A stretch of 50,100 nt of DNA, filler included, from Sphacelaria rigidula (lineage: Eukaryota), in assembly GCA_964200075.2 (NCBI GenBank). It is 3 parts of 3 records of this genome, joined end to end, with 100 filler letters (N's around TTAATTAATTAA, not from the genome) between each part and the next. Parts side by side here need not be neighbours in the genome. Positions count along the whole stretch, not along the records: positions 1 to 16,640 come from CAXNAA020001294.1; 2 more parts are not named here. One strand, written 5' to 3'. Both the position numbers and the translations under genes were made by a program. This document shows positions 3,378 to 43,621 of the stretch, in pieces; the first letter of the stretch is position 1; each line of letters opens with the position of its first letter. The notes under the pieces were generated by a model. The model made no database searches and was not told where the DNA came from. It saw only the letters and a list, made by a program, of their open reading frames with translations.

Positions 3378-6300
3378 GTCAGTTAAAGCGCCACAATTAA
3401 ATCAATCAGCGAAAAAACGTAGAAATATATTCCAGCAGCAACAAAGACAGGGGGGACACCAATCAATGAAGGATATGACGCAGGCGCACGCGCACGAAAA
3501 ACGACAAGATCTCGCCAAAAACAGAAAACAAAGGCGCCATTCCGCACTATGCAACAACAATTCCATACACACAACGCGAGAACACGCGTCCCGGTTAACA
3601 CGTCGAAGGACTTCCGCCAAACAGTAAACAAAGCCAACATGCTTGCACTATGCCACACGACACAACCGACCGAGGACACACCGCAACAATAGGATTAGGA
3701 TAGCGCGTCCTGGTCAACACGCTCTGCCGAAAGACCTGATGGCGCATCCAGGCTCGGGTTTGGTAACGCTCGAGTGACCCGAAGGGCTGCCAGGTTTGTA
3801 GTGAGTATCTGGCGTTCCTAAACCTTCTGAAGAGCTGCAAGAGACGTGGGTGCCGGCCGGGCGATCCGTGGTGGCATTGTTTCCAATTTGAGATCCGCAG
3901 CAGGTGGGCTTGAGGCTTTTGTACTGTGATCGCAAGGTGAAATACCTCAACCGTAACAGGCTCGTGTTTAATTCAATATCTACGGCAAATTTCGTCTGAG
4001 AACGCAAAATCGATTTTCGCCTGCAGCAGGAGACCATAGCTGCTCAAAAGACAAGAAGGATAGCTCACGAAATCATCTTGCCTACAGAAATGCATCAAGT
4101 GGCGAGAGGATCGCACTCGTGGGCTGAGATCAGCTTTTGGGAATCGATCGAACAAGGGGTGACCCGTCGGTATAAGAAAGATCTTAACAGGATCGGACTC
4201 ATTTGCGGCAGGTTCAGCGTTATACTATCGTCTGAAAACACAACACCACTGTTCGTGATACTATAGATTGCTCTGCTTTGCATCGCGCTTCCAATTTTCT
4301 TTCCCTTTGTTATAGGTTACTTCTTGTGCATGAAAAAATAAATATTGTTGAAATGTGCATTTTTGACCCTTCTCAATCAGTCTTCGCCCGAAAAGAGGGC
4401 CAGGCGGATGTTGACACCTTGGAATGACTTGCTGCGCTCGTTGAGACGGTTCTAGAGTACCTTTGCGTTTTCCGTAGGTCACAGCTTTGTTCTTAACCAA
4501 ACTTGCGTTTTCAAAAACAAACGGTCAACTTATAAAAAAAACAGGGTGAAATCTGCCATTTTTCTGATAACTTGACCGTTTGTTATTGAAAATGCAAGTT
4601 TGGTCAAAAGCAAAACTGCGACTTGCGGGAAACGCAAAGGTGTTCTCGAACGGTCTCAACGAGCACAGCGAGTCATTCCAAGGTGTCAGCATCCACCTGG
4701 CTCTATTTTCGGACGAAAAACGATGGAGAAGGGTCAAAAATGTACTTTTCGGTAAGATTTGTTCTTTTATACATAAGAAGTAGCATTTTATGATGGAAAA
4801 GGAGCATAATCGGCATACAAGTAGAAACACGGGAAGAAACACTCAAAATTCATGAAGTATAAATCCACTGAAGCTCTCGCGTCTGTGCACTTCTATATGA
4901 AACCACAAACATACCCGCCCGCCGTCGGGACTGCTGAATACGGTTGATGAAGTTCGTCTCCATGGCTACCAACTCTCCAACACTACAGACAGTAGTATAA
5001 TAGTCGTGCAGTCAAGTGTATGTGTTGGCGCTGTGGTGCTGGGGTGTGTGCTCGACGGGGGAAAGTCTTCACTGATTGGTTCCTCGCAAGCTACTTTTCG
5101 TGTGACAGAATGCTGTTTGTTTGACGACAACGCATTCGCTGTAGGAAGAGGGCCTGCCGTGGTTGCGGGGAAAATATGTACTGCGTATCGAAGCAACAGT
5201 CTCTTCGCTCCTACACTGTACAAAAAACATACCCGCCCGCCGTCGGGACTTCGATGTAGGAAGAGGGCCGGCCGTGGTTGTGGGAAAAACGCAAAAAGTA
5301 TATCCACCTACATCGGGGGAAATAAGAATCCACCCACACCTTTTACTATAACCGATCCCGCGTCGTTTTTATTCAATTCTGGAGCGCACGTTTTTTTAAT
5401 CTCAGGCCCGTTACGGATATTCGCGCACAAAGCAAAGCCTTCACGTGTACCGTAGTGCAGGCAGTAGCCAGTGGTCATCTCCTCTGCATCTGCATCCACT
5501 GCCAAGGCAGTAGTACAAGGTTACAAGTACAGGCTACAGTTGTGCCGTGTTTGCGAAGCACAGCCTATACTTGAAATGTCATACTGTTAGCAAAATCCAC
5601 GGCCTGTACTTGTGAATACTCATGCGCCCTGCTGCAACACCCTGGCACTGCACTGTACTACTACTGTTACAGTATACCGTAAAGTCTACATCGTACTGTT
5701 TGTATTGTGCCCATCATCTCGAGAAAAAAATATCATCCACGGCACCACCGGATGATGAAAGATCCAAGTGGGTGTTTTCCGTCGTGCTTCACAGTGACTC
5801 GTGCTGGCTGGACTTCGATATTCCGTCGGTCCTCTTTGTGTCTGTCGTTTTTTTCGTTTCGTCTTTTACGTGCTCACCGTTTCCCTTGAATTGTGCGATC
5901 ACTTTTAATCGACGTTCAGGGTCATGTGAATGGGGGTTGCCCATTTTGAATGCGGTTGATGAAGTTCATCCCCATGGCAAGCAACTCTCCGGTTCAAAAA
6001 AGTCCTAGACAGATGTTGGACTTCTGTATAGTGTACGCAGTACACTTCTATTCATGTAGTCTACCGTCGGTTCTAAAAAGTTCTAGTAACACTGTTGGAC
6101 TTCGGTATTGTATTCAGTGTGTTACTCTGTACTATCTATGATACTGTACTGCATTGTACCGTCAAAGTTCTCTTTAAAAAAAAAGGTTTTTGTCACAGAT
6201 TTTCCGTCACAAGAAATCAAGGTGACATGAGAAAAGACCCAAGACAACACCATTTTTCGTGCTGAAAATTGAAATGCCGCAGGAGACGACAGCTGCTCAA

Positions 6301-9300
6301 AAGACACTGGAGAGATTACGAAGTGATCGGAAATGGTTGGCGATATTTTGATATACAACTGATGAAAAAGAGTGAGATGTCCAGGACACCCAGCCCAAGT
6401 TCCCGCCACAAGCGATGAGCGCTGGAGCGCACCACGCACACAGTCGATTCGTCGGCCTTCTGCTAAGTTGTGGCAACCCACACCGGGAGTAGGCTGAGTT
6501 GTGATGCGGTATCCTAATCCAACGGAGAAGGACCGCCTGGCTGAAATGTAACGCAATACCATTTTGTCAGGAGAGAGGTTCAAGCCCACTTCCTTGAGTA
6601 GGTGCAGCCGCTTTGTGGGTTGTCGGGAAGTCGTGCCCAATATAACTTCCTTGTTGACTAGGTCGAAGTCCAAGATGGTAAGTCGTAGAGTGTTGAGCAA
6701 AAATGTTGATAGATTGTTTATTACTGTATTTAATGTAGTTTTCTACGAACCAACACAGTTGAACTCCAACGCGTACTCGTAGTCCACAACCAGAGGAGCA
6801 GAGGGAAGAGATGGGATGGGGAGGAGTGAAGAGGGCGGGGGAACGAAGAGGCATCATCTTTGTTCCACCTCGTCGACCCTTCTTGCCCTTCTATCGTACC
6901 TCATTCCAAACTTGTGATTGCATTCTCGCACAATCCCATACCGTAGATTTTGAACACACTTGCAGTCCACAACCAGAGGAGCAGAGGGAAGAGATGGGAT
7001 GGAGAGGAGTGAAGAGGGCGGGGGAACGAAGAGGCATGATCTTCGTTTCACCCCCTCGACCCTTCTAGCCCTTCTACCGTACCTCATTCCGAACTTGTGA
7101 TTCCATCCTCGCACAATCCCATATCGTAGATTTTGAACACACATCCCCCCTGATGCAACACCCAAAATTTGTATGTTTTTGCTGTACTTTTAGAATCACT
7201 GCAAGACTTCCCGACCTGCCAACCCTGAACACATGTATTTTCTTGCGACATTACTTTACTTTCATACACAAGCGCACTCAAATCACTCTGAAGCTGGAGC
7301 TACACTTTGCGTTCCCTGCAAATTCTACAACTCCATCCCTGTATTACGGACAACGGTTATTCAAGCTACTTTCAGCTCGATTCCTACTCACACACGCTTT
7401 CCTTCATTTGATTTGAACTTGCCATATCCTGAACAAAAACGCCTCCGAATGCTTGGCTCACCACATCAGCCCCTTCTGTGAACCTAAATTGTATCTCCTG
7501 TATGTGAATCACACTTGTGAGAACCCAACATACCTTATAGTTCTGTCCAAAAACCTTTTATTGGCTCTATTAATGGGAACTCCAGGCCAATGTCTGCTGG
7601 TAAATGGTCCCTTGATCCACGTCCTGTTGTCTGAGATGAGCTGCATGGATAGATCGCAGATCATCCCCACCTCATCTAACAACCACAGCTACTCTTCTAT
7701 CCACTTCCACTCTGTCTGTCAAGCTCATTCGAGCATTGTCCTGTTGACTTAACGCTACCGACGTAGCTTAACTGGCAAGAGCACTTTGCGTTTCGCTTGC
7801 GTTTCGCTTGCGTTTCGCTTGCGTTTCGCAGAGAGAGTAAGGGTTCAAATCCCTTCGTCGGTCTTCTATCGTATACGACCCTCATGTACAGATAAATTTG
7901 GTGAACAAACTTATGCCAAGCGCGAAAATTCTGCGTGAGTCTCAATATTTTCACTCAACCCTCATTCTTCATCACTCAAACTCACAAACATGGAAGACAA
8001 GAAACTGAAAGAACATAGATTCATTCGCTTGCTATACTTACTGAATATATCACACCCCAGCATCCGTTCCCTTACTTCTATTGCTGCCTGTGTGCAATCA
8101 ACACACTAAAACCAACCGTCAATTTCCATATTAAAACAGAGAAAACATTTCAACCAAGAAGTCAGACAACCCTCGTTCTCTCCGAGCCGCTCTTCTTCTT
8201 CTCGTGCCATTAAACCGAATTGTACCGACGTCAACTCACCCCAATCATCTACAGTCCTGTGATATCTTGTCCTCATGGCCCGATGATCCTCGATGGTCTC
8301 CTTCATTCCTGCAGGCTACAGCGTGTGCGCAAAGTATTTCGACGTCCTCCGTTGTACACGGTGGTGCCAGCACCAATCCGTCACTTGGTTCCGAGAAGCC
8401 TTCAAGTTTTCCACAAGAAGGTGAATATTGTACCGCTTCCTAAGGTTCAACATCCTCAAGGTATGCGGGCGACTTTGTAGCTCCGCATTCTCCTGGACGC
8501 CCATAACCCGAGCCAAGTGCCAACCTGCTTTCTGCATTCGGTAGTAAATGTAGCAGTCGACAATTTGTGGGTCATGAGCGTGAGGGCCAGCATCAACATC
8601 TTCTCGAGGCTCATATCCTCTTGCCACAAACATTTTTCTCCTTTCACGAACCTCCGCTCGTTTTGCCAAATTAACACGATATTTTCGGTACTTGGAATTA
8701 TCTCGTTTATCCGTTTTCAGGTTTTCCATCCAATGTGCCAGAATAACTCTACCTTGTGGCTTCACATCCCCCTCATGTTCCTTCCCACCGTGGGTTTTCC
8801 AAATTCTCCCAGTATATTAAATATTGTACTGACTGTGTTCCTCCCAGACTTCGGGATAGTCGATGACTCACGATTTTGGTGGGCATCATCCGATATGTAT
8901 CCAGCTGCACTGACACATCATCCATCGTCATGTGTAAAGGTGGAGACAGCTCCGAGTACTGATTCAGCACATACTGACTTGATGGACGGCGGAAACGATT
9001 TCGGTGGTTCGGGATTATTCTTTGAGTTCAAACATTATTTGCACCTCAACACGGAGACTCGGGAGCTCATAACCAATCCAGGCTCATTCTTCCTTGTTTC
9101 CAGGACCAGTAGCTTTTATCTTACCAATTCTGCCTTTTCTGAGATGCCTGGGCCCACCACCAAGATTTTGTACGGTCCTGTCCAGGAGGAGTAGTCGTTT
9201 CCCTTTCTCGTACCGTGGACAAATACCCAGTCGCCTACTTTCCAGGTTGAACGCCCGTTCAGAGTTTCTTCCAACGGTTCATTATTCGACACGTGTTTGG

Positions 9301-12300
9301 ATTTTATCGAATAGTCTTCCTGCTGCACCAGATCATATGCGTTGATTTGACGATCTTTCATCAACTGTAAATGCTTAAGTTGATCTGCCTTTGACCCTTG
9401 GTGTCCGGACACACCTCTTCTTTCTAGGATGGCCATGGGTAACCGAGGATACCTTCCGATATGCACTTCATTGAGCGCCAGCCCTATTCCTCTACTTGCA
9501 TTATTGTTGTGTGCAGTAATTGCGCGTAACAAGAATTTGTCTCACTTTTTTCTGGTCATCTTCCACCAAATCCGACAAAATCCGACACAACGTGTGGTTC
9601 AATCGCTCTACTATCCCATTGGTTTGTGGGTGATACACTCTCGTGTATCGTTTCACGGCTCTCAACATGTCACAGACAATATTTGCTACTTTTGCGGTGA
9701 ATTCCGTTCCTGGATCCGGCAGTAACGTGTGAGAATATGCCCACCTCGGTACGTGTTCATGCCTTAAAATCGCAGCACAACCTTCTACGGTTTTCTCTTA
9801 TATAGTAAACGCGTAAGCTTCCGCATGCCTTCTGAACAAGTCGACCATCAGTAAGATATAGGTGTTTTCCTTGATTCGTTTCTGACAACGTGTGTGTTGT
9901 GTTGTCGTCCCAGCTATTATAGACACCGGTCTACTCCTTTTGGTATATGTGGACGCACCAGCCGGGGTCATGTAGGAGGAAGGTCAATACAGGAGTTTTT
10001 TTTCTTCTTTGTTCGCTTTAGTTCTTCACCTTCCTTCTGCGGTGCTTGCCTTTTGTTTTTTATCGCAAGAGGGTTTCAGCACTTCTTTTCTCTCGTCGAC
10101 CATTCAGTCGAATTTTGTGTACCCACGACGTAGTCGCTCTCCACTGTTGGGCACTGTGTGAGAAAAAATCCAAAATTGCTCCGAGATTCGAACCCACGAC
10201 CCAACCGTCAAAAGGTGTCGAGGTTACCAACTGACCCACCGGGGCGACCGGCATCAATGGACCCGATAAATCAAACGAGACCGTCTGTCCTGGCTGACTC
10301 GGCAGAGGTTAGGAGACCAGAGGCCATCAAACCGTATGTCTCCGGTTTATTCCGTGCTTGACGGAAGCAGCGCTTAACCAGAATTTGACACTGTCCTTCG
10401 TCTCAATCCACCAATAGCATCATTTCAACAGGGATAACGTAATACCCTCCCCCAAATGAATAGCTCCTTTGTGAGTTTGATCCGTTACCCAAGGTCTCAA
10501 TAACAGTGCCATGTACGTTCGTGTTAGCTTTTCTCCCAAATCTCTCGAATTGCCCAGGATATCGGTGCACTTGAGCGGGCATCCGCGTCCGGTGCTTCGC
10601 CCACAAAATACTCCCATCCGACAGTTCAAAAAGTGTTCAATCTTCTTCAACCATTTTTTGTCAAGTCGGGTAGGTTAATTCGTACAGGGACACCTTTTTC
10701 TCCATCTTTTGTCAGTACCATCACTTGTTTTTTCAAATATTTACAGGAGATATACCTGCTGTATTCTAGCCCAGTCTGTTGCCGATTTCTGGCACAACTG
10801 TTCTCCAAAATGACAAGCTTCCCCAGTTTCCAGCGAGGGTGGTATCGTTGCTGACTACACCGTACTACTGCCTACTTCTACGGGATTGGAATCGATCACC
10901 GACACGGATCTGTGCTTTCGTGTCTGCAGTAATCTTCTCCCTACTTCCGTGATTTGGCATACATCCAACATTGGACCTTGGTCCCACTATCCTTTGACCA
11001 TATTCGTGATCTGGGGGAATATTGAAGGAGAACCATCCGGTACCGCGTACGAATACTTCTCCTTTTTTTCCCTAGCAGACCCTCTTGTCTTGCATCTACT
11101 CCTTTCTTTTTGTAACTCGACCCGCCTTTGGTCTGCTTCCTCGTTGGTTGTGAGAGGCACTGTACTGACATTTTTCTCAACATTTTTCAAACCCGATTCA
11201 GGATCTAGCTCATTCAAATTTGAATCGTGGGCACCCACTACAGATGCTACGTGTCCCTCGCTGGACGGGTTTTGAAAATACTCGGCCGAACTCCACCAGC
11301 CCCGATGAAATAGACATACATGTCTTCCGGGTACGTAATTTGGGCCTCGAATTGATCGTCATCATTTAGCGGCTGTGGCAAATGAGACAAAATAGCGGCA
11401 TTCGCGTTCACACGTCCTGGCTTGTACTTAATTTCGTAAGTGTGCGCACTTAGGAAGTCGTGCTAGCGCTGAACTCGCGGAACCGTTTCTGCAAGGCTCA
11501 TTAAATTTCGCACCGGTTGGTGATCAATATAAATCTCGAATAGCACATCATAGAAAAGCGGCCTATTCTTTTCGATGACCCACATAATGGCTGCTGCTTC
11601 TAATTCGGACACACTCCAGTTTCTTCCGTTGGGAAGTGTTCCTCTGCTTAAAAACACAAGGGAACGAGCCGTACTATCTTCTTGACGTTGTTCAACCACC
11701 GCGCTCAGACTATCCAAAGATGCATCCTTGGTAAGCATATACGGTCGTTTTCCCGAAGCCGCGCCTTCGTAATCAGGAAACGCTAGAAAATTCGCACCTG
11801 TCAGTGATGATAACATTCCCCTGACAATGGATCCATGCTGTTGGATCGACTGAATGCGAACCCCCATCCGTAGCAACTGCTCTAGAGCTCTGATTCGCGC
11901 AGCTATCCGTGGAATAAATTGACGATAGTATCCCAAATCTCCCAACAACAATCTCAGCTGGGATACATCAGACATCAGACATCAGACATTAGACGGCATT
12001 GGCATTTCGCGTAAAGCCTGTACTTTCTCCTGGTCCGGGAAAAAATTATCAGCGAAGATGTGGTGTCCTAAACAATTAGTTTCTCTCGCCCCTACATGTG
12101 TCTTTTTCGGTGCCAACTTACGGTTGTACTTGGTCAGTCACTGAATAAGACCTTCCAAGTTCTCTACATGCTATTTCCCAGTTCCACTGAAAGTACAAAC
12201 ATTGTCAATTCAAGGCGACAACGTTTCAGACCATCACATATACGCGCCATAGTAGACTGGAACCAACTTGGGCTTTCACTACATCCCACCGGCATGGCCA

Positions 12301-14502
12301 ACCATTCGTACAGACCACTCTGCGTGCAGATCGTGTATAACCACCTTAAAGTAGCCGGATGTGATTTCTGAACACAAAAATATTTTGGCTCCCCCCAATT
12401 CATGTAGGAGTTCCTCAATTATTGGAAGGGGTAACACAGGAATTATCGTACTTTCATCAAGTTTCTTGTAGTTACATGTAATCCGAATGAATCCATCCGC
12501 TTTGTTCACGATCACCAGCGGGCGACTTCAGTCAGAATACGATCTCCTTAGAAGGCCTGGCCAGCATGCGGTCGATTTCCACTTGTACTTTCTTTTGTAC
12601 TGCCGGGCTATGACGATGCGGGCGCTGCTTTACTGGCCTGGTTCCCGGCTACAACTCAATTTTCAACGGGTCCACCGGGCAACACCCTAAATCCATCTTG
12701 TCCTTGGAAAATCGGTGCGAATACTTGGACAAGATTTCACCCAAGTCCTCGATGTCTTCCACTGTCCAATGTGCGCGTTCCAGACCAAACTTTGTTATCC
12801 ACATATGCGTGGGGAGTTTCTCCCACAAATTCTTGGATGCTTCTTGTTGCGCAACGTTCAAGCCCGCCAAGACCGGTGGGTGTTCTAAATCCTGGTCTAC
12901 CGTGGGTACTTCCTCAGGCTTCAGATCAGTTGTTTTCGAGATCTTAACGTCCCCCAAGGAGCATGGTACCAAAGGTGCTCCAGCAAAACCTAGAGGGGTG
13001 TTTGGGGTCAACACCTGTCCCTCTAAACCGGTATAACAGAGGGGAAATACCCGATTCTCCAGCTTCTACAATGATTTCTCATGGAGACCAGTCTGAATCC
13101 AGTGTCACGTGGAACGAGCCACTCTCGATGGGCGTTCCATCCATGTTGAATAATTAAACTGGTACCCAAGATAACGTATAAGGTCGTACCCTATCGATCG
13201 ATCCGTTGTGAACCACTACAATCTGGGCTTCTCCTGATTCCAGTTCAACAAAACCGACTATATTGCGAACGCTTTTCGCAAACAAACGGTCAACAGAGTC
13301 AATGTCATTTTCCTCTAAAGCCGTGATTGTTTCACCTTCTATCGTGGCCGCCCCGATATCAACCATTTTTCCCACACCTGGTACTGAACGAAAGCGGACG
13401 TTGACCGCATCTTGGACGCCGAGCAGACAGTGTCCAGGACGCCAAGCAGACGGTGTCCACCGAAGTGGAGAAGGCGAGAGCGCGTTTGGCTTCATTAGAA
13501 ACCCAGCAACGACACCTCCACCAGTCGGCGGCGGTGGAGGAGGCGGCGGTTCGAGAAGCGCGCAAACAGCGCGAATCGACCCCTGCCGAGTTTCTCACCA
13601 AAGCCGAGGTACTGCCGAAACGACTTGACTCTCTCGGCCTAGAACAACAGCAAAGGGATACCCGTTCCGCCGCTGCGGCTCCCAGGGAACGTGTTGTAGG
13701 TCTGCATATTGAACGCCGCCCGGTTGTACGTACAACTCCGGTGCAGCCGCACCAGTACCCAAGGCAAGATCAGTCGGGTGCCGAGGTTACCTTGGAAGAT
13801 TACCGAATGTTGCGCGGAACGTGCCCTGCGGACATCTCGTTATCCGAATAGCACGGCTACCATAAGTTCCTTTCTCATCTGGGGGCAGCAGGTGCCATGG
13901 CACCATCTTTTTTCTGACGGTCGCGTTTTGTTGGATTTTGCAAGTGCGACTGCCTGTGTACATGATGAAAGCTGGGTCGCTTGGAGTCAGTTATGGACGG
14001 ACTTGCGCAGAAAAGTAGGTCCTGCATGAAATCAGACTAACCTATACCCTCGCACAGATTCATGCTGTCGATATCCACCGCCTATCGTGGATTTCGAAAC
14101 AGGATCTGTTGCCAAAGCACAACTGTAGTGCCACGCATAATGGCATCTCAACTCGCCGCCATTCTCCGGGAGCTCACTTCTAACTGTTAACACGTACTGA
14201 TTATCCTTCACTCGTTGTACTGCACATGTCGCCGCTGCCGAAGCATGTGTACTACCAGTATTCGCTACGATCTTGGTCATGCGTTACGGTATGTATCACT
14301 GGGACGCTCTGCACTTACAGTCAGTCGTGTGGTGCCTACAGGCACCATGTTGTCGTGCTCGTAGTCACTAGGGCCCACCTGCATCGATCAGTGCGACCGT
14401 ATTCAAGTGCTTGCTCTTGAGCCAGGTGGCGTTCGTAACGTCCTTGAACAGCGCGAGCGTCAAACTAATTTCGGGATAACCATCGATAGCAAATGTTTCC
14501 AT
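163..14502 (-). CDS. TPRKB: CGI-121/TPRKB (EKC/KEOPS complex subunit), 5' three exons; gene continues beyond the left edge of the window
   Basis: Exons 14502-14379, 2399-2318 and 241-163 splice in frame (phases 1, 2, 0) to METFAIDGYPEISLTLALFKDVTNATWLKSKHLNTVALIDA-GLVLSVFQLRVAATMAVEKEKSGKMKTR-SLPSELVWSLSGSKNMSGTFQTFCVQ. This matches the CGI-121 pattern LFxxVxN...ALIDA...SxFQLxxA...GKMKTRxLxSELVxxLSxSxNI. All acceptors are CAG; donors are GT, GC, GC. Confidence 0.88.
1186..1485. mobile_element. ~300-bp non-autonomous TIR element (MITE family A)
   Basis: Termini AACAAtGTTTTCGTGAGA ... TCTCAtaAAAACGTTGTT; homologous copies at 15377-15676, 24118-24878 and 48418-48712. Confidence 0.75.
1535..1576. 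repeat. (CAG)n(CAA)n microsatellite, intronic
   Basis: Direct reading. Confidence 0.95.
2040..2207 (+). repeat. Dispersed repeat ending in telomere-like (TTAGGG/TTGGGG)n
   Basis: ...CCCTTGCCCGAGGGTTCTCGGTATGCCTTGGGTTGGGGTTGGGGTTAGGGTTAGGG...; homologous copy at ~37485-37627. Confidence 0.7.
2318..2399 (-). CDS. TPRKB: TPRKB exon 2
   Basis: Acceptor CTCGCAG|, encodes GLVLSVFQLRVAATMAVEKEKSGKMKTR, donor AG|GCAAGT (GC type). Not in the ORF track. Confidence 0.85.
3332..3376. repeat. (CAA)n microsatellite
   Basis: Direct reading. Confidence 0.95.
4319..4781. mobile_element. Foldback/palindromic element (~460-bp imperfect inverted repeat)
   Basis: ACTTCTTgTGcATgAAAA...TTTTTGACCCTTCTC mirrored by GAGAAGGGTCAAAAA...TTTTATaCAtAAGAAGT; centre near 4545. 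Confidence 0.8.
6778..7152 (-). mobile_element. Candidate PPT and 3' LTR start of the Gypsy element, with a 183-bp tandem duplication
   Basis: The minus strand reads CAGGGGGGA (PPT-like), then TGTGTGTTCAAAATC from 7143. Unit 7143-6961 ends in ...GGACTGCA and is repeated at 6960-6778 with about 15 mismatches by eye. The true LTR end is uncertain (AATAAA ~6720; CA ends at ~6704 and ~6191). Confidence 0.6.
7757..7863 (+). tRNA. tRNA-like cloverleaf (pseudo-tRNA) with 4x11-nt repeat in the anticodon arm; isotype not assignable
   Basis: Acceptor stem ACCGACG/CGTCGGT; D-arm GCTT-AACTGGCAA-GAGC; anticodon stem CTTTG/CAGAG; variable loop AGAGT; T-arm AAGGG-TTCAAAT-CCCTT. It is 74 nt when (TTGCGTTTCGC)x4 is collapsed to one copy. 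Confidence 0.7.
8300..13385 (-). mobile_element. Degenerate Ty3/Gypsy (chromovirus-like) LTR retrotransposon pol: RT - RNase H - integrase - chromodomain
   Basis: RT: VNKADGFIRITCNYKKLDESTIIPVLPLPIIEELLHELGGAKIF, GLYEWLAMPVGCSESPSWFQ (~12700-12000). RNase H: LGYYRQFIP...LTKDASL...NWSVSELEAAAIMW...IYIDHQP (11975-11400). Integrase: PGQTVSFDLSGPL, TYILLMVDLF, WTGPYKIL (~10550-9100). Chromodomain: KIVSHR...VQYLIYWENLENPRWE (~8880-8770). Many stops and frameshifts. Confidence 0.92.
9891..10250 (-). mobile_element. tRNA-derived SINE inserted in the Gypsy integrase
   Basis: Minus-strand head GGTCGCCCCGGTGGGTCAGTTGG (A box) ... GGTTCGAATC (B box), ~350-bp body, CA-rich tail; several copies in the window. 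Confidence 0.85.
13390..13900 (+). pseudogene. Possible gag-like coiled-coil fragment in opposite orientation to pol
   Basis: Coding-like helical ORF (STEVEKARARLASLETQQRHLHQSAAVEEAAVREARKQRE...) abutting the truncated 5' end of pol; no diagnostic motif. Confidence 0.3.
14379..14502 (-). CDS. TPRKB: TPRKB exon 1
   Basis: ATG at 14502; 41 codons + 1 nt; donor GCAG|GTGGG. Confidence 0.85.
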
Positions 14503-15010
14503 CAAATCCACGGTGCTGGGTCGGCCTTGTATTGTCGGGCGTACGTCCCCAACGCCTACCCCTAGCTGTCGTTTCTTGTTGCAGGCTGCTTCTCGCCAGC
14601 CCAACATGCGGCGGAACTGATTGAAACGTCTGTATTTTGACGAAGCCATACGAACAATTTGACGAACCGGCACAGCGGTGTATCTTCCTTGGACTCTGCT
14701 GCCATACCCCATGTCCCCTCGCATTGTCTGCTAGCTTGTTGGTTGCTTCATTGTTTTTGGTCCGTCCCGTTGCCGTTTATTGGCCTGCCCACTTTACTCT
14801 GTCATGCAGGGTACTCAGGCCAGTCAGTCCAACAGATTGTGATGCGCCAGTGTTGACAAGTGAAAAGCGCCAGCCTTGAGCTCAACACTACGTGCTCCGG
14901 TGATAAGTCCCGTAGGGGAATAGGAGCACGCCTTTTCGTCAAGGCCACCAACGGTCGAGTCGGTCATTTGCAGCGGCAGTATAACAACCTGCAGCACACG
15001 CTTTGGTATC

Positions 15011-15145
15011 ATGGCAGATGAGCAACCGGCCCTCATGAACAGGGAGGTTCGGGATGTAAAAAATGTTCCGCGTGCAGAGGAGCTGGTGAAGAATAACGTG
15101 GGGTCAACGGTTAGAGATAACTCAAGATTCAACGTCGTCACGCAG
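15011..15145 (+). CDS. Candidate first coding exon of an unknown gene divergent from TPRKB
   Basis: ATCATGG start, MADEQPALMNREVRDVKNVPRAEELVKNNVGSTVRDNSRFNVVTQ, donor CAG|GTGGGA; downstream exons not securely identified. Confidence 0.35.
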
Positions 15146-15376
15146 GTGGGAAGGGGCATGCATGACACGTACCACGAGTATGATATCGTTTACGTGTTTA
15201 CATCGTACCTCTTGGTGTGGAGGTATTGTCATTTTGTCCGCGAAAGAGTGGACGGTGAAGGATTTGCATAAAAAACAACCGTCGACAACGGACGAGTATC
15301 TATAATAATAGTAGCATTCATGCAAAAGGGTCCCTCTCGGACGGTTGATGTATATACAAATACTATTATTGCAGTT

Positions 15377-15676
15377 AACAACATTTTCGTGAGATCGGGA
15401 GTAGAGGATACACGAATGAGAGTGAAAAGCGGTCAATTAGTATATGAATCGTTTCAGTTCCGAAAAGTCCCTCCACGAGGCCCAGTATGCTTTCTGTAGT
15501 AACTGACCACTGAGGCCCTTGATATCCCTGAGCAGGATATCGACGTGTAGCTGTAAGCACACGCCAGTGATGGAGGGAGAGAAAAACACGCACAAATGAA
15601 CGATGGCTACGTTAAGGAGAACGATCAAAACCGCTCTCAATCAGCGCTCTACTCTCAATCTCACGAAAACGCTGTT
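15377..15676. mobile_element. MITE family A copy
   Basis: Colinear similarity to 1186-1485; TIR TTTTCGTGAGAT/ATCTCACGAAAA. Confidence 0.8.
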
Positions 15677-15714
15677 AGTTGTACTACGACACCCCGTTGA
15701 AGAATGCAAGGTTG

Positions 15715-16200
15715 CGTTCTGTAGGGTACGGGTTTCTGTATACCCGGGGTATTTTGCCGGGTATTTACTGTACCCGACAGTTCTGTAACTTCTGTAAGAC
15801 TTTCATAGCGGTACCTGATAGTTCTGTCAACTCTTTGAGACTTTCATACCCTTACCGGATGGTTCTGTAATCTCTGTAAGACTCCCAAATCGTTAACGGG
15901 GGGCACGGGTACGCTCTTGATAAGATACCCGATTGCGGGCACGGGTTTCCATGCGACCCACATACCCGACAGTTTCTGTGAGTTCTGTAAGCCTCCCATA
16001 CCCTTTCCCGACAGGTCTGTGAGTTCTGTAAGACTTTCATCCAGTACTGGTACCCGACAGTTCTGTGAGCTCTGTAAACCTCCTACATCTCTACCGGGGG
16101 TTAGGGTATACCGCTACAGATATACCCGATCGCAGGTATGAGCACAGGTGTATACCTTGGGGAGGCACGGATATAGATAGGTTCAATCCAAACACAACCT
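15715..16200. repeat. Dispersed repeat built from TACCCGACAGTTCTGTGAGTTCTGTAAGAC-like subunits
   Basis: Multiple internal subunits; related copy at ~20830-21160 ending in the same AACACAACC motif. Confidence 0.75.
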
Positions 16201-16264
16201 CTTGACCTGAACATGTACCTCCGATCGATCAACCCACCCAACTCCTTCATTCAAAACTGCACAC

Positions 16265-16367
16265 TGTGACGGTTTAAGAGACTATCAACTACACTACTGA
16301 TCAGTCAGCGCGTGGGCGACGCGCTGACTGATCAGTAGTGTAGTTGATAGTCTCTTAAACCGTCACA
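16265..16367. mobile_element. Near-perfect 103-bp hairpin element with TGT...ACA ends
   Basis: TGTGACGGTTTAAGAGACTATCAACTACACTACTGATCAGTCAGCGCGT-GGGCG-reverse complement; second copy at 24591-24665. Confidence 0.85.
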
Positions 16368-16640
16368 AAAGTTAGTCGTGGGTTCAATTCCTGTCACTTT
16401 CACTCCGAGGAGGGCGACTCCCCTTGCCAGCGCTCTATCGACCGCCATCATGAGTCTGTAGTGGTGTCTCTTCTCACCGTAACCTTGAGTTTCTCGTCGC
16501 TCCCACTCATTTCCAGAGTTTGTGCTCTGGGGACCCTGGCAGTCAACTCCAAACATAGCCACCAGGCTATATCCCACCCTTTTTTCTTTTTGGGCCAATT
16601 TTTTACTGAGGTTTTCTCTCCTTGGGGCCAATCTTTTACC

Positions 16641-16740
16641 NNNNNNNNNNNNNNNNNNNNNNNNNNNNNNNNNNNNNNNNNNNNTTAATTAATTAANNNN
16701 NNNNNNNNNNNNNNNNNNNNNNNNNNNNNNNNNNNNNNNN
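16641..16740. other. Assembly gap with TTAATTAATTAA linker
   Basis: 100-nt N run with central linker, identical in design to 33378-33477. Confidence 0.97.
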
Positions 16741-19563: not shown

Positions 19564-19733
19564 CACACCTTGGACAACATATGGTCAATGGTTGCAATAG
19601 ACAAGAAACGTACTGCATAGAGTATAGGCCTATTGCGACTATTGTCGACCGGCAATAGTTGCAATAGGCCTATACTTTATGCAGTGCACTTCTCGTCTTT
19701 TGCATCTATTGACCATCTATTGTCCGAGGTGTG
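19564..19733. mobile_element. Hairpin MITE family B (CACACCTTGGACAA...TTGTCCgAGGTGTG)
   Basis: Full-length imperfect palindrome; related copies at ~25093-25233, 28972-29080 and 41618-41750. Confidence 0.75.
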
Positions 19734-19734
19734 G

Positions 19735-19915
19735 TATATTTTGGCGCACCAGCCGGGGTCACGCGGGAGGAAGGCCGACGCAGGAGCTTTTTCTTTTTTG
19801 TTTCTTTGAGGCCTCCACCTTCCTTCTGCGGTGCTTCCCTTTATTTTTGTCCCGAGAGGGGTGCAGCGGTTCCTTTTTCCCTCGTCGACCATGAAGTCTA
19901 ATTTTACTTCTCTGC
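19735..19915 (-). mobile_element. SINE body fragment
   Basis: CGCACCAGCCGGGGTCAC...CCCTCGTCGACCAT matches the SINE at 9891-10250. Confidence 0.7.
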
Positions 19916-24161: not shown

Positions 24162-24530
24162 AGTGTGTGTGTGTCGTACCATCTATTCTGGACGCCGGTC
24201 TTCACCGTCCGATTCATGTGGGCGTACCGGTCGGGATCACACAGGAGGAAAGTCCACACATGAGTTTTTTCTTTTTTTCTTTATTATTTGTTTTTTAGTA
24301 TTCCATCTTCCTTCTGCAGTTCTTGCCTTTTATTCTTGATCGCGAGAGGGGTTCAGCAGTTTTTTTTCCCTCGTCGACAGTCAAGTCGAATTTTGTGTAC
24401 CCGCGACGTCGTCGCTCTCCACTGTTGAGCAAGGTGCGAGAAAAAAATCCCAGGTTGCTCTAAGATTTGAACCCACGACCCAGCTATTGGATGGTCTCAA
24501 GGTTACCAACTGAGCCACCGGGCCGACCGG
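24162..24530 (-). mobile_element. tRNA-derived SINE inserted in MITE family A
   Basis: Same head, body and (CA)n tail as 9891-10250. Confidence 0.85.
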
Positions 24531-24665: not shown

Positions 24666-25416
24666 GTGCTTTCCTTCGCCTCTATCACTGACGACGTGTG
24701 TTTACAGCTACACGTCGATATCCTACTCAAGGATATCAAGGGCCTGAGTGGCAAGCTACGACGGAAAGCATATCGGGCCTCGTGGGGGGGCGTTTCGGAA
24801 CTGAAACGATCCATGAAATAATTGATCGCTCTTCACTGTCAATTGTACCCTCTACTCTCAATCTCACGAAATGATTGCTTACAGAAACCTGCCTGTGGAC
24901 ACCGTTTTTTTCATGTCCAGTTGGATTCGTGTTCAGAAGACATTCTCGAAACCTCGGAGCCGAGCGAAACGGGAAAGTGGGCCAGGCTCCTCTCGGTGGG
25001 GTGATAAAGAGTGTCCCAGGCATATTATGTGATGGTGATATTCCCTGTTTGGGGGCCTAGAGTGGAATCAGTGTCCCAAAACAAAAAAATCCACACACTC
25101 TGGACGGTATAATGCACGGTCAAAAGGTGTACTGCGTACAGTACCGACTATTGCGCCTACTATTGCAACAGGCAATAGATTCTATACAGTACGCAGCATA
25201 TTTTTTTGACAATTGAATCTGTGCGCAGGGTGTCGAAAAATCCGAAAACGAAAAAACAGTGGATCCTGAAAAAGGAGTCGATCTCAAAAATGAGGTTCAA
25301 GTGGCATATTGTTTTTTCGGAGATGACGCGAACCAGTAACATGGAGCGAAATCATCTTTCGCCCCAAAACTCTACAGCAGTAAATCATCAGTTGTGGCTA
25401 AATGCATCGAACGACT

Positions 25417-33377: not shown

Positions 33378-33477
33378 NNNNNNNNNNNNNNNNNNNNNNN
33401 NNNNNNNNNNNNNNNNNNNNNTTAATTAATTAANNNNNNNNNNNNNNNNNNNNNNNNNNNNNNNNNNNNNNNNNNNN
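33378..33477. other. Assembly gap with TTAATTAATTAA linker
   Basis: N run with central linker. Confidence 0.97.
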
Positions 33478-37345: not shown

Positions 37346-40300
37346 GTGAGTGGTTGAACCATGTTGTGCTAACAGTAGAGTTTGCCGGCGTTGGGCTACA
37401 GAGTATCATGGTTAAGATAGATTTGAGTGTGTACAACGAGGCTCGGAATTTTAGCAAAGCGACAGTCTTGTGTCCTGTGTGCTCCCGCGTGCGCAAAACG
37501 TTTCGTCTAAACTCGCTTCACAGGCGCCGATTTGAGGTATTAAGGCCGCACTTTGCCTAGGGAATGTATGAACCGCCCTTGCTCCAGGTTTCTCGGTATG
37601 CCCTTGGTTGGGGTCAGGGTTGAGGGTAGCGATACTCACATGATTGTGTCAGCGTCGACATTTGTGGCCCAATACGCGTAAAGTAGCCTTCCTGGTGAAG
37701 CCCGCAATCACTCGTGCTCTCACGATTCACTTTTGTGGGCCATGATCCACTAGTATTCCTGCTGTAGGTGTTTGAATCTAGTTGGATTCTCGCCATGAAA
37801 AAAACAAAACAAGGAGGAGTACGAGAATTCTGGACTCGGGTGAAACAGTCATGAGAGTCCGTTCATCCCAACCCGCAGCCGACGACAATTGAACGTGTTC
37901 GGCACATCCTATACCTTTCCCTCCCCACCTCTTCTCGAAAGGGATGCGTGGTCAATGGTCAAACGACTGAAGCGAGCAACAAGTGAGCACCCCTTCCCCT
38001 CCCCCCGCCCTTCCGTCACGTTCTTTATTTAGCAAAAGTGCTCTTGTAGGGTTGTATCGTTGTGTACTGCCCGTGATGACGACAGAAATGGTTTCGCGTC
38101 CGTCTGACCCTCGCATCGTGTCTGCCGCGCAAGATTTGATCGATCACTCGTGTGTTTTGCTTTCGGAGGATTGAACAAATTAGACGTGCACCGCCTTTAC
38201 CTAATGTGGATCACTGTATCCTCTATCGTCATTCGGTGGCCGAGCAGGTACAAAATGCCGCGCGTAATCGGAAAGGTGGAGGGTAAGGGTAATGGCATCA
38301 AAACCGTCATCTTTAACGTGACCGACTTGTCCATGGCCCTCAAGCGTGACCCCGGGGAGGTCTGCAAGTTCTTCGGCACCGAGCTTGGTGCTCAGGTCAG
38401 TCTCCGTTACCCAGTACTGACATTGGGGGTGGGCTCTTATGTGGTGCGTCTTCAGTTCCACATTCCCTTGACCCAAGATGCCGTGATTCACGAATCCATA
38501 TCATGTTGTAACTGATGTTTGTGTTTGTGTGCTGTCATCCCATCTATGCTTGACGCCGGTCAACGCCTTTCGGTACGTGAGCACCCCGGCCAGGGGAACC
38601 AACACAGGAGTAGTTTTTCTTCTGTAGATCTCCATCTGACTTCTGCGGTGCTTGCCCTCATTTTTTATCGCGAGAGGGGTTCAACGATCCCCTTTCCACG
38701 TCGATCATCACCTCGATTTTATTGTACCCACGACATGATCGCTCTCCACTGTTGAGCAATGTATGAAGAAAAATCCCAGATGATTGCTCGGAGATTTGAA
38801 CCCACAATCCAACCGTCAGGAGGCTTCGAGGTTACCAACTGACGCACCGGGGCGACCTATGTACTGTTGCTGTACACATTTCCACTCGCTCCGACTACCT
38901 GGCTGTCGAGCCATATTTATTCTCCCGGCTGCCGTGGGTTGTTTGAACACATGAAAAGAGTACGTGGAACTGTACGGTCGTCGCTGCCCACTCCGTTGAC
39001 GGCTACCATTGCTGCACGGGGAGGGTTTGCGAAACAGATGTGGTACCGGGTACGATTCCTCCCCATCCCGTTGCGGCGGTGAAGTTGAAAAATGATGAAC
39101 GGAACGGGGCGGTGAAGAGGATGACGACTCTGGGACAGCGTCTCTCGCTGCGAAACTTTGAACTTGGTGTAGTAGCCTCGGTTAGACCCTATATATACAG
39201 GCGTTATCTCCGGAAATATGCGTTCAACGCGGGGTTGAAGTGAGGTCTCCTCACTACCCTTTCCCTTGTGTTTTTGTCTTCGACCCTTTTTCCCGGCGTT
39301 TCTGGACCAGACGCGTTACAACGAAGAGGACGAGCGTGCGATTGTGAACGGTGCTCACACAAACGCCATTCTGCAGCAGCTGGTGCACAAGTATGTTGAG
39401 CTCTTCGTGCTCTGCCCCAACTGTCGTCTTCCTGAGAGCAGTGAGTTGACGTGTGTTCTTGCTGGGGGCACGTACTTTGCTGCATCGACAGAGTATACCG
39501 CTGGCCTTCGACATACACTCGTGATGGCTGGATACGAGAAGTCCCCGCGTGCATTTCGCGTCCGTTGGTATGTCGTACGCCATATCCTAGCCATCCAACG
39601 GTTGAAGTGCCCAAGGCTGTCCGTCCCGGGAAAAGCCCTCACATTCCCCCCGGGGCTTGGTACATTGAACTAAAGCATTGCCATAGCGGCGCGCCCGTGG
39701 GCTAGGTGCGTGAGACGTTCTCACACGCCGTGTCACACGCGCTATTCATTGCTTGCACGATGACCGCTCATGGTGGTCTCCATGTCACCCACTAAGTGTA
39801 CACTCCGTATTGTACTCATCACGACACGACATGTGGGTTGCAATCGCGGCAGGTCCGACTTTCCTGTTCCCATTTAAGCGTCGTCCCTTCAACAGAGCAT
39901 CATTCCCCCCCTCCCCCCTGCCCCCTCTAGGCCACCGGGGGTTGGGGTTAGGGTCAGGGTTATGGTTAGGACTATGGCATGCATGACTATGAGTACACCC
40001 ACTAGGCCACCGGTACAACTTGGGTGCCGAAATGTTTGATTCTATTTTGTCCATAGCGATCAGCTTTCTCTTCGCATTCGGCACGTCATGAAACACCGTG
40101 GAGCGCGTGAGATTGGGTGAGTCCGGTTCTGTTCGGTGGAAGGAGTGCAGCGAAATAATTGCCGCAGATATGATTTTTTTCGATATTTCTTGTTGAAGCG
40201 GTGATTTCACGTACATCCGGCATGTCGCGAAGCACATATATTGTGTTCATTGGCGAGATACGTTGATCTGTTCGTCCTCCCGACAGCTCGAAAAGCGTAG

Positions 40301-43300
40301 ACTGATGAAGAGCCACTGCGTTCTCTTGTGAGGAGCTAATTTACTCGAAATCTTATACGTTCGCCCTTGATAATTGGACAAAAGAGCTGCCACATGGAGA
40401 AAAGTAAGCCTTCCATTTCCCACATCGACATTTTGTATCGAATTGCTTCAGAGTACAAGATCAAGGGAGGAGCCATTTTCCACAAGTGCTATGCTTGCGG
40501 AGCGAAGGAGATGGTGGATATGTCACACAAGGTGAGCTGACACCCGTTGTTGAATTCACAGGAACGCGCTCTATGCTGTAGAATCTGGTGTACACCACAG
40601 TCGTGACGGGGGGTGTCGGTGACCTTGTGGTGTATCCTTTACAACGTATGAGTCGTTTCGAAAACGCTACATTTGCTTCTTCTCGTCATGCCACGACCTA
40701 GTCTTGAACGTGGATGTGCGACTGCCGGTCTTGACGTTGGTGTTTGTCTGCGTGTATTTGCACGCGAGACGAGTAGAATTCTCGTCCTTGGTCGTTGCCC
40801 CACCAAAACTTGACCATTTGTGCAGTCGTCAACGCATCGGACCCTCTCGGTTTTTTTTTTATCCTGGTCGCCATGGACAGCTGTGTACCTTCATCGTCAA
40901 TTCCGCCAAGAAGTCTAAGAAGGACAAGGAAAAGGAGAAGAACTCTAAGGACAAGAAGCGTGAGAAGAAGGTATGATTTGTCAAGTTGATGAAGCGCGGT
41001 ACATGTTCATTCGTTTTCCTCAGTGATGTCACAGTGATGATTTTTACTACAATGCGTCGTCGAGGTGGATTTGTTCTTCGTTATTTCACCAACTAGCCTT
41101 GACTGACCCTGAAACGTGGGGTGTGTGTATCGGTTCACCATGATCGAGTCATCATGTGGATACGGTGTGCTGTATCTGATTGGTAAATGGCGGCGACAGT
41201 TTGCCGCTAATGCGCTCATTGTAGGTACCATGAAATCATTATCCACTGCATGATTAATGTAAAAGAAGATCAGTTTTCCTGGAGCGCAACCACCGATATG
41301 TAGGCGATGCATCGGTGCGATTTTGTCATGAATATATCTCGACATTGTATTCGATTTCCACCGATACACGGTCGTACAAGAGGTTGGCAGGATGCGAGGA
41401 TGATATTTTCTCTCACTAGATTCAGCGAATGTACGTTCTTTCGTGTACTACTCTTGATACAGGTACACGGCTATGATGAAGCCCTGTTCGGACACCAAAT
41501 TGTCAACGTGACACCCTTCATGGGCTGGGTTTATGCTTGTGATGGTGATTGGAAAACAGTGAAGGATTCGGTTGCGATTTTTTTCGATACGAGAACGTGA
41601 ATTTGTGGTGGGTTTGCGCACCCTGGACAAAATATTATAGTAAAAAAATGTACTGCGTACAGTATAGAATCCAGTGTCTGAAGCAATGGGCACAATAGTC
41701 GATACTGTACGCGGTGCGCTTTTTGGCTGTATTCGTTTGTCCAAGGACTGTAGGTATATAGGCTGTCAGCGGCCGACCAATTTGAACTCATTCTTGTGCC
41801 GTGGTTGTTGATGCTCTGTTGTTGTCCCAACACGGATGACATTCGTTGAAAGGAAGACAAGAATGCTCATCTGCCCCGTCACATTAGTTACGGACGGGTC
41901 AAAGAATGACGCACATTTCCCGGATTCGTGTCCATGTGCGTTCTTGCAATCTCAATGTTGAACCTAATCGTTCGGCGTTTTTTCGTGTTTTTTTCGTGTC
42001 TGTCGATGTCCTTATTGATGGAAATCAGGACAAGAAGAAGGACGACGATGGTGACGACGCCAACGATTCTCCCAAGGAAAAAGAGAAGAAAGAGAAGAAG
42101 AAGAAGGTGATACCTTACTGTTGAGTATTTTCTGTCTCTTTCCCCGCTGCACCTTGCCCCCCCCCCCCCCCCCCAGTTCCTCGTCCCCCCGTCCCTCCTC
42201 CCGGAATATAATTGGGCGGCCTCCGCAGTGCAGTCATGCGCATGCTTTGCGTAGGCATTGGTCCAAACGGGCGCAATGTAATTTGAGCGTGAAAACCGTG
42301 CCCTATAAACTCGAGTCCGACAGCGTTGGTGATGCTTCGTCACTGAGTTCTTGCCTTCCGCTGCGCAAAGTAGTGGCCAGATGAAGGCTGATTGGGAATG
42401 CTTTGTCCCACCTCTTTTTGGGGGGTTGGTGATGAAGCGGAAGTTAAACAAGAGTCAAACAGAATCTTCTTCGACTAGCAGCGGGTGGAGGTGCCTGGAG
42501 AATTATGTCTTCCTATCGCCCGCCGGGCACAGGCTGGCCGATTTATTCCATGCGGTCGCGGTAGCTGTCCATAATGTGAAGGAAATCGTGGGTATCATCT
42601 CCATACTGTCTCATCGTCAACTACGCTTGTGACTACCGGTTGGCTGTAGACAGTACTGAAAAAGGTTTGCGCTTTACTCGTTTTTGCTGTTTGGGGTCGG
42701 GCGGGGGCTGGGGTACACGGCAAACGGCGCTTGCAGGACAAGAAGAAGCGTGACAAAGAAAACGGAGCGAGCGTGGACAACGGCGATAACAAGGAGGATA
42801 CCAAGTGAGCTTGAACATAGTCGCGAAGGAAATATCGGATGATCTTTCACTCGCAGTGATGATATTTTTTCACCTACTCCGAGCAACGTTATTACCCTGG
42901 TGCCATTGGGCTGGTGACCAGTAGTCTCCATATTTGATGAATTGTGATGAAGTAACGTGAGATCCAGCAGGTTACTCTAGGAGATACGGGGGGACCCCCT
43001 AAGTGCTGTACGTAGCGAGGGAAGGTTAGTCAGAAGTAGCCTCGGAATTAATGACGAACGCGTAATCTACTCTTATCTCGTCGAGAGAGATGGCGGGGTA
43101 TATTCGGCGCGCGTGTGACGTTGGTTTTTCGACTGCAGGGTTTTTTTCTTCTTTAATGCTGTTCTGTGCATGTTTTTAATCACGTATCACAAGGGCGAAC
43201 GCGAAACCTTACCTGCTCTGTTTTTTTCATATTATTCTCATATCTCATGTGTTCGGTTTCTTTTCTGTTTTTTTTGTATGTATTCCTCTCGACTGCCCCG

Positions 43301-43621
43301 TCCGCGCAGCGAATTTGGAGACGTGGTGGCCACGTCACAGAGCCTCGAAGTCGAGGACGCTCAAGCATTCGAAGATTCTGTGGCAGCTATTCGCCGCCAC
43401 ATGGATGATGGCACCTCCGACGAGCTCTTATTCGAGGTGAGACGTGGAAGAAGGAGATGGGGTAAGGAAAAGGAGGGGGGCGGGGGGGGGGGGGGGGTAC
43501 TCATTTTTTCCTTGCCTGGGTCTTTTGACCATCGCCCAGCCCTCCATTTTTAACGGGGGCATGGTTCTACCTCNNNNNNNNNNGCAAACACACGTGGTGG
43601 GCGTGGCGCGGGGGTGTGCGT

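Follow-up and report, generated by a model that had tools for sequence, protein, structure and literature searches.

A tRNA-derived sequence with a disabled anticodon arm lies antisense beside a decayed Ty3/Gypsy pol in Sphacelaria rigidula

The window analysed here, a 50.1-kb stretch of DNA of Sphacelaria rigidula along whose whole length all coordinates are counted, contains at 7757-7863 on its plus strand a cloverleaf-like sequence derived from a transfer RNA (tRNA). It keeps the body of a tRNA but has a disabled anticodon arm and, as it stands, is no working tRNA. The sequence is antisense to the decayed pol of a Ty3/Gypsy retrotransposon. On balance, though with some reserve, we regard it as a passenger, that is, a tRNA-derived relic carried in transcribed sequence that descends from a transposable element (TE) and adjoins the decayed pol.

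A tRNA body with a disrupted anticodon arm

A first-pass annotation, made from the sequence alone, had described a tRNA-like cloverleaf at 7757-7863, and the Rfam tRNA model (RF00005) matches the plus strand at precisely these positions. The match scores 45.2 bits, the gathering score being 29 (E-value 1.6e-6), and extends over the complete model (positions 1-71 of 71); a full-length match at or above the gathering score places the sequence in the Rfam tRNA family. No other Rfam model reaches its gathering score in the window, and among the 13 Rfam matches at E<=5 this is the only tRNA. The tRNA likeness of the sequence is far above chance.

The acceptor stem (ACCGACG, 7757-7763, with CGTCGGT, 7856-7862) consists of seven Watson-Crick pairs out of seven, the D stem (GCTT with GAGC) of four pairs including one G-U, and the T stem (AAGGG, 7839-7843, with CCCTT, 7851-7855) of five pairs that enclose the loop TTCAAAT. 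Altogether 21 of the 21 stem pairs of the cloverleaf are intact, two of them as G-U, and the invariant loop letters of the tRNA body are still present. The A and B boxes (7764-7775 and 7842-7852; Table 1) are as intact as had been claimed and may retain residual promoter activity for RNA polymerase III (Pol III). The claim that all four stems pair holds for the acceptor, D and T stems, whereas the 5-bp anticodon stem forms only with 31-33 nt of repeat looped out. Folded at minimum free energy, the 107 nt retain the acceptor stem without forming a cloverleaf (z -2.67; 3 of 200 shuffles fold as well), because the 11-nt repeat forms a long hairpin of its own.

A perfect 44-nt array of the unit TTGCGTTTCGC (family D2 of the repeat search) takes up the anticodon arm, and the Rfam alignment treats 46 nt of the anticodon region as an insertion. 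In its default mode ARAGORN reports no tRNA anywhere in the window. With introns allowed it returns a tRNA-Glu(ttc) whose 31-nt intron occupies the canonical place 37/38; this model has U33 and a purine at 37, requires an additional base between the D stem and the anticodon stem, and its 'intron' consists only of further repeat copies. We varied the number of repeat units in silico by slicing the window sequence and repeated the ARAGORN call. One unit gave Lys(ttt), two gave Ala(cgc), three Arg(tcg), four or five Glu(ttc) with an intron, and the sequence without any unit gave no call. The isotype shifts with the number of repeat units, and the sequence therefore has no stable anticodon or isotype; a seven-base anticodon loop on a 5-bp stem with one stable anticodon was not found in 7757-7863.

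The 3' end likewise lacks features of a tRNA gene. A Pol III terminator is expected shortly after the 3' end of such genes; here no run of at least four T lies close to the cloverleaf, the nearest downstream one being found at 7948-7951, 85 nt beyond its end. The genomic letters that follow the 3' end are TTC instead of CCA, and the sequence is therefore not descended from a mature tRNA. A functional intron-containing gene, for example for tRNA-Glu(UUC) with the 31-nt intron at 37/38, is highly improbable. ARAGORN's intron mode returns exactly such a gene and the Rfam score would admit it, but the call changes with the copy number of a repeat that supplies the 'intron' itself, the extra base is needed between the stems, and a T-run is missing nearby. 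Moreover, an A1-U72 pair and a D arm of the type seen here are unusual for a cytosolic tRNA-Glu.

A fragment of organelle DNA, i.e. a plastid or mitochondrial tRNA gene moved to the nucleus, is equally hard to credit. Acceptor stems starting with A and the T loop TTCAAAT are common in organelle- and bacterial-type tRNAs and thus fit such an origin. A metagenome scan for an A box, a gap of variable length and a B box returned three stretches, which turned out to be ordinary tRNA genes in clusters (Ala, Asp and Ile). Both boxes hence occur in ordinary tRNAs of several isotypes, which would also suit an organelle source, but none of the three stretches shares flanking sequence with the window, the lone BLAST match being 23 nt long and situated elsewhere. 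Nor do the flanks contain a recognisable organelle gene: the three flanking frames 7417-7752(+), 7069-7416(+) and 7700-7954(-) gave no match to any Pfam family.

Contigs and copies in public sequencing runs

Nine public sequencing runs contain the stretch, eight of them from one organism (organism A). The region 4000-16000 was compared at 80% likeness with three of the eight organism-A runs, which come from two studies (X1, X3 and X7), and with an algae metagenome (X9). Parts without cover in the organism-A runs (e.g. 6406-6806 and 14827-15227) were not used as evidence.

In all three organism-A runs a single contig that extends from 7800 or 7815 to 8531 continues directly at 13378 without a mismatch (records 4, 12 and 16), and the 4846 nt in between are skipped. 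In the metagenome run, contigs pass uninterrupted through both junctions (records 24 and 29). On the plus strand the skipped part has the ends CT...AC, corresponding to GT..AG on the minus strand, where the donor reads CAG/GTGTGG and the acceptor TGCAG/A; from these ends the strand of the joined RNA was inferred. The letters CTG are common to both sides, so that the junction is free by three letters and can be placed in four ways, and by our own estimate a canonical junction on either strand would therefore arise by chance with a probability of roughly a few per cent. Inside the skipped part an exact contig has a depth of 4.2 (X7, record 17) versus 26-33 for the joined contigs. No long frame is open in the joined transcript, the longest one across the junction, with no start required, having 155 codons, and no gag frame is open. 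One frame remains open across the 13378/8531 junction into the C-terminal frame of pol.

The joined contigs are probably a spliced minus-strand RNA that lacks the pol enzymes and carries the cloverleaf antisense in its last exon, the RNA nature of runs X1-X8 being the guess of the search tool, with no RNA record listed. This suggests that one minus-strand transcription unit comprises both the cloverleaf and the part of the element that lies upstream of pol. Whether spliced or deleted, the flank of the cloverleaf stays joined to sequence upstream of pol.

A diverged second copy is represented by a 288-nt contig of run X3 (record 11), whose depth of 6.6 compares with 26-42 for the exact contigs. 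It aligns to 7577-7844, differing by 21 mismatches and 27 gap letters, and it keeps 180 nt of left flank together with the initial 88 nt of the tRNA-like piece, the array being shorter. A diverged copy with the same left flank argues against an isolated insertion event at this locus. Since the shared sequence reaches 180 nt upstream of the tRNA start, it also speaks against a short interspersed nuclear element (SINE) whose 5' end would be the tRNA-like head.

In the metagenome run the summed contig depth is raised over two 400-nt bins that include the cloverleaf (Table 1). It amounts to 32-54 at 6406-7207 and to about 29-39 for exact single contigs, and in the pol core it ranges roughly from 365 to 2900, SINE-bearing bins aside; these totals do not translate into copy numbers, and other organisms may contribute to them. 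The raised depth hints weakly at moderate repetition of some 0.8 kb around the cloverleaf. Paralogous contigs of pol differ from the window by about 18% (57 of 324, 58 of 316 and 61 of 345 letters in records 5, 19 and 28).

The neighbouring Ty3/Gypsy element

On the minus strand the Pfam families RVT_1, RT_RNaseH, rve_3 and MLVIN_C follow one another in this order and relatives align collinearly, which gives the succession of reverse transcriptase (RT), ribonuclease H (RNase H) and integrase. Residues 167-1015 of a relative of 1015 residues (P0003) map by tblastn in four pieces and three frames from 13339 down to 10759. The integrase end was located with its own set of relatives: when the best 150 of 195 were mapped by tblastn, 136 of the 188 resulting pieces fell in the bin 9000-9499. 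Several of these relatives run on through a chromodomain-like stretch (8979-8782). One of them (P0153) has a weak match to the Pfam family Chromo, with E 0.0046 and 17.3 bits against a cut-off of 25.1, and part of the matching residues maps within 8979-8782; the window's own fragment of the region (8776-9027) gave no Pfam match. Another (P0033) aligns to its last residue at 8430, where the frame stays open to 8319; the end of pol, previously set at about 8300, is thus roughly right, with homology reaching 8430 and the open frame 8319. A protease near the splice donor was considered, but the only matches to the N-terminal part of P0003 had E-values of 0.18-0.23, and no location is claimed for it.

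The closest named relative of the pol (P0001) comes from a brown alga and shares 62% identity. The closest relatives in the protein collection are 51-62% identical, and the host's own copies hence seem to be absent from that collection. The pol is decayed by at least three frame changes, several in-frame stops in the RT/RNase H frame and the insertion of a SINE in the integrase region. That the cloverleaf is antisense to it is borne out by the minus-strand fragments found with Pfam and tblastn; it lies some 450-570 nt past the point where pol ends (8430-8319). From 13000 down to 7001 the GC skew is strongly and uninterruptedly negative. Some LTR elements, yeast Ty3 among them, target tRNA genes; Ty3 inserts upstream of these genes, a poor fit to the present case since pol lies downstream of the cloverleaf.

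No boundary of the element could be placed around the cloverleaf. A self-BLAST of 5000-16000 against the window yielded no match between the two sides that would represent a pair of long terminal repeats (LTRs), the repeat search of the window yielded none either, and a comparison of 6000-8800 with 12900-16600 at word size 7 found no similarity (best E 0.61). This copy of the neighbouring Gypsy element hence does not show two LTRs. The polypurine tract (PPT) and LTR assumed at about 7150 in the first-pass annotation are not confirmed, since the minus-strand polypurine runs of at least 11 nt lie at 8190-8203 and 8633-8645, with none at 7150, and no LTR pair was found. A solo LTR may nevertheless surround the lone tRNA-like piece.

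The idea that the cloverleaf supplies a private primer of reverse transcription also finds no support within the window. A primer binding site (PBS) complementary to the cloverleaf 3' end plus CCA was sought on both strands of the window with up to three mismatches, and only the cloverleaf itself matched; the same search on shuffled sequences gave at least one match in 27 of 100 cases. The TTC found in place of CCA is a further point against it. The flanks of the cloverleaf share seven 7-mers against a mean of 2.7 (fraction 0.052), which is not above chance, and besides a patch rich in A (7984-8013, 12-13 A per 20 nt) no clear target site duplication (TSD) was seen. We agree with the first-pass annotation that the cloverleaf has no obvious TSD or SINE body; nor was a tail seen beside it.

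These boundary data are where an unrelated origin has to be considered, namely a tRNA gene or pseudogene of normal host DNA that predates the retroelement and is unrelated to it, the Gypsy fragment having landed or been left close by in a region rich in TEs, with 7150-8300 lying outside the element. The missing LTRs, PPT at 7150 and TSD would suit such an origin, as would the near single-copy depth of run X9 at 8010-8811 and 6406-7207, the derivation from a gene and not from a CCA-tailed mature tRNA, and the repeat patchwork of the window. We nevertheless consider it unlikely. Against it stand a second copy that shares 180 nt of left flank as well as the tRNA-like 5' part, and the raised depth over 7208-8009. 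In addition, pol homology and its open frame reach 8430-8319, from where the same transcript continues through the cloverleaf, and the negative GC skew is unbroken between 13000 and 7001.

Table 1 Features of the window discussed in the text
Feature	Position	Strand	Evidence and remarks
tRNA-derived sequence	7757..7863	+	Acceptor, D and T arms complete, anticodon arm disrupted; Rfam RF00005, ARAGORN with introns only
A-box-like motif TAGCTTAACTGG	7764..7775	+	Read from the sequence; aligns with the D arm of the tRNA model
B-box-like motif GGTTCAAATCC	7842..7852	+	Read from the sequence; aligns with the T arm of the model; some 66 nt past the A box
Perfect tandem repeat, 11-nt unit TTGCGTTTCGC x 4.0	7786..7829	.	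TRF period 11, 100% matches, score 88
Exact-match contig stretch joined to 13378, read as last exon	7008..8531	-	X1 records 3 and 4; X3 records 9, 10 and 12; X7 records 15 and 16; 0 mismatches
Skipped 4846 nt, read as GT..AG intron with RT, RNase H, integrase and chromodomain-like region	8532..13377	-	Records 4, 12 and 16
Upstream exon part joined to 8531	13378..13792	-	Records 4, 12 (to 13681) and 16 (to 13792), 0 mismatches
Raised summed contig depth in X9, two 400-nt bins	7208..8009	.	2388 and 2456; bounds are bin edges
Decayed Ty3/Gypsy pol, RT and RNase H plus flanking regions	10759..13339	-	tblastn P0003; Pfam RT_RNaseH 8.6e-18, RVT_1 6e-05
Integrase fragments	9077..9797	-	Pfam rve_3 and MLVIN_C, weak; tblastn of integrase-end relatives
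Chromodomain-like region (8979-8782) and pol C-terminal extension	8430..8979	-	tblastn P0016, P0033, P0101, P0105, P0153
Abundant tRNA-derived SINE copy nested in integrase region	9892..10251	-	Self-BLAST; very high summed depth
Further SINE copies	24163-24530(-), 38520-38857(-), 44898-45187(+), 19732-19905, 50001-50100(+)		Self-BLAST

Origin and possible role

The likeliest history of the tRNA-like piece is that of a passenger. It may have begun as a copied tRNA gene, or as a retroposon derived from a tRNA, that came to lie within the terminal, non-coding portion of the retroelement or within a repeat nested in that portion. The embedded piece would then have been copied at least once together with its flank, and the 11-nt array in the anticodon arm would have expanded later by slippage. 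Today the piece would be transcribed solely as antisense cargo of an RNA made by RNA polymerase II (Pol II).

Several observations weigh against this history. Neither an LTR pair nor a TSD, a tail or any element boundary is definable around the cloverleaf, and with no boundary found its placement in the terminal part of the element is carried by two things, the continuity of the transcript and a coarse depth profile. Since the runs were labelled RNA by guess, the joined contigs could also represent a deletion allele in DNA. The low depth of run X9 at 8010-8811 (168 and 326.5), between the pol core and the block of raised depth, would fit a separate repeat or host DNA equally well as a variable terminal region. 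Finally, the contrast between intact stems and a decayed pol that the first-pass annotation had pointed out is real (21 of 21 pairs versus the frame changes, stops and SINE insertion of pol and the divergence of about 18% of its paralogous contigs), and it may mean either that the tRNA body is selected for or that it is younger.

Selection on the tRNA body leads to a different explanation, in which the tRNA-like unit would be an integral Pol III part of the terminal region or LTR of the Gypsy family, carried by an autonomous element in a manner comparable to Cassandra or Helenus, and would act there as promoter, antisense regulator, chromatin boundary or source of primers. Besides the intact stems and boxes, such a unit would account for the left flank kept by the diverged second copy, for an X9 depth over 7208-8009 of the same order as in the pol core and for the co-transcription of the stretch with the upstream part of the element; LTRs with sequences of Pol III type have moreover been published. 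We judge this explanation doubtful, though the strongest of the alternatives. The element copy has no LTR pair and the window no PBS complementary to the cloverleaf 3' end, the repeat replaces the anticodon arm, and there is no terminator within 85 nt. A single other copy was seen, its 3' half unseen, and a translated paralogue was not found. For miniature LTR elements with such inserts (miniature terminal-repeat retrotransposons, TRIMs), the autonomous partners are expected to use Pol II promoters, according to the parts of Kojima (2024; PMC10886601) drawn on here.

A broader form of this explanation would comprise an autonomous, chromodomain-bearing Ty3/Gypsy family in a brown-alga-like host with a conserved antisense tRNA-derived Pol III unit in its 3' terminal region or LTR, the tRNA body being under selection and the anticodon arm free to vary, and with a spliced subgenomic RNA that lacks pol and contains the unit in its last exon. 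We hold this combination to be improbable. If it were true, it would be the autonomous counterpart of elements of the Helenus and Cassandra type and, at the same time, an example of a Copia-style expression strategy in a Gypsy element.

Searches for relatives added no further copies. A protein search with the open minus-strand frame that runs through the cloverleaf (7700-7954, 85 aa) gave no candidate, a result that depends on open-frame copies being in the database. In a collection of viral contigs there were no relatives of the RNase H fragment, none of a four-sequence alignment (A1) and no exact match to the 24-nt stretch of T arm and acceptor stem. A literature search for brown-alga SINEs or tRNA-like repeats found nothing on point.

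Comparison with known systems

The closest published systems are the Helenus elements (TRIMp3), non-autonomous LTR retrotransposons 311-1263 bp long that have a PBS, a PPT and TSDs of 4-5 bp and whose two LTRs each contain a tRNA-like part (Kojima 2024, PMC10886601). In the parts of that article considered here they are reported from fungi, animals and one plant, most of them cannot encode a functional tRNA, and their origin is probably the insertion of a tRNA-derived SINE into an LTR. Like Helenus, the sequence in S. rigidula is derived from a tRNA with A and B boxes, is found in LTR-retrotransposon sequence, has no consistent isotype and is likely of similar origin. In contrast to Helenus, it is a single copy in antisense orientation beside a pol of autonomous type; the window contains one tRNA-like match and no pair of direct repeats around it, hence not a tRNA-like part in each of two LTRs. 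The same parts of the article report no Helenus from brown algae or their relatives (PMC10886601). Since LTR elements with tRNA-like sequences have thus been published, the novelty is lower than the first reading of the sequence had assumed, and the relic most likely belongs to a kind already known, being at most another example of it.

Cassandra TRIMs of plants are likewise non-autonomous and contain a sequence derived from 5S ribosomal RNA in their two LTRs (PMC10886601, as far as drawn on here). They resemble the present case, going by that account, in an internal promoter of Pol III type within LTR-retrotransposon sequence, but they carry 5S and not tRNA, and no 5S family of Rfam matches in the window. 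With tRNA-derived SINEs (SINE2) the sequence has in common a tRNA-like head with A and B boxes, and the host genome does mobilise such elements; it differs from them in that the cloverleaf is without tail or TSD and the flank kept by the second copy reaches back 180 nt from the tRNA start. An ordinary tRNA pseudogene or a tRNA gene bearing an insertion would share the high-scoring body, the disabled anticodon arm and the lack of CCA. Here, however, there seems to be more than one diverged copy with a shared flank, located in TE-derived and transcribed sequence.

The joined contigs invite comparison with the spliced gag-only subgenomic RNAs of Ty1/Copia elements, described for shGAG of EVD, for BARE and for copia of Drosophila (PMC5580714, PMC3735527; both considered in part). 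Similar to these, a long intron would remove the pol enzymes and join the upstream part to the 3' terminal part. Unlike these, the element in S. rigidula is a decayed copy of Ty3/Gypsy affiliation with no open gag frame, and the RNA nature of its contigs is deduced. In the passages of PMC5580714 used here, the Ty3/Gypsy elements of Arabidopsis show no conserved splicing of the gag-only type and splicing is described as a strategy of Ty1/Copia, so that a pol-removing GT..AG intron in a Ty3/Gypsy element may be of more general interest.

For genome annotation, the tRNA called by tRNA predictors and Rfam at this place should be flagged as a disabled TE-associated relic and not as a gene. Should the family keep the cloverleaf, the class of LTR elements with Pol III inserts (Cassandra, Helenus, Ajax) would extend to autonomous Gypsy elements and to stramenopile algae, and a natural case would be available for the role of tRNA-shaped DNA in a retrotransposon, be it as promoter, boundary or target of silencing.

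Other repeats and genes in the window

Apart from the retroelement the window is a patchwork of repeats. A SINE family of about 360 bp is present in six copies or pieces, one of them nested in the integrase region (Table 1). Its head is tRNA-like (GGTCGCCCCGGTGGCTCAGTTGG...GGGTTCAAATC...) and shares with the cloverleaf only the B box; this generic box aside, the cloverleaf is unrelated to the SINE head, as had been stated before. The family has the A box TGGCTCAGTTGG and the B box GGTTCAAATC followed by a T-run, and the Rfam tRNA model misses it even at E<=5.

Another repeat, likewise very abundant and some 300 bp long, occurs at 15377-15677, 1186-1486, 48420-48712 and 24666-24871. Its summed depth reaches about 38000-40600 in the organism-A runs, and the contigs contain many inverted and internal-deletion joints of it. 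At 6775-7142, just beyond the position where the exact contigs of organism A stop (7008), a 183-bp unit is tandemly duplicated with 92% identity. The 3' flank of the cloverleaf was compared with these units as a candidate relative; the scores of 24 and 19 were reached by 5 and 72 of 300 shuffles, respectively, and are not significant.

A long and nearly perfect hairpin is located at 4452-4650. Several plant microRNA precursor models match it on both strands, with scores far below their gathering scores (e.g. 58 versus 195 bits), and it has the look of a palindrome of the miniature inverted-repeat TE type; the summed depth is raised in the bin 4401-4801. Runs of N, which are masked or gap stretches, occur at 16641-16740 and 33378-33477 (two pairs of 44-N blocks, with 12 bases between the blocks of each pair) and at 43574-43583 (10 N).

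Two open frames on the plus strand, 38108-38512 and 39239-39670, each match part of the Pfam family eIF-5_eIF-2B (2.4e-10 and 1.4e-08, respectively). Both are probably parts of one host gene, split by an intron that contains a copy of the SINE.

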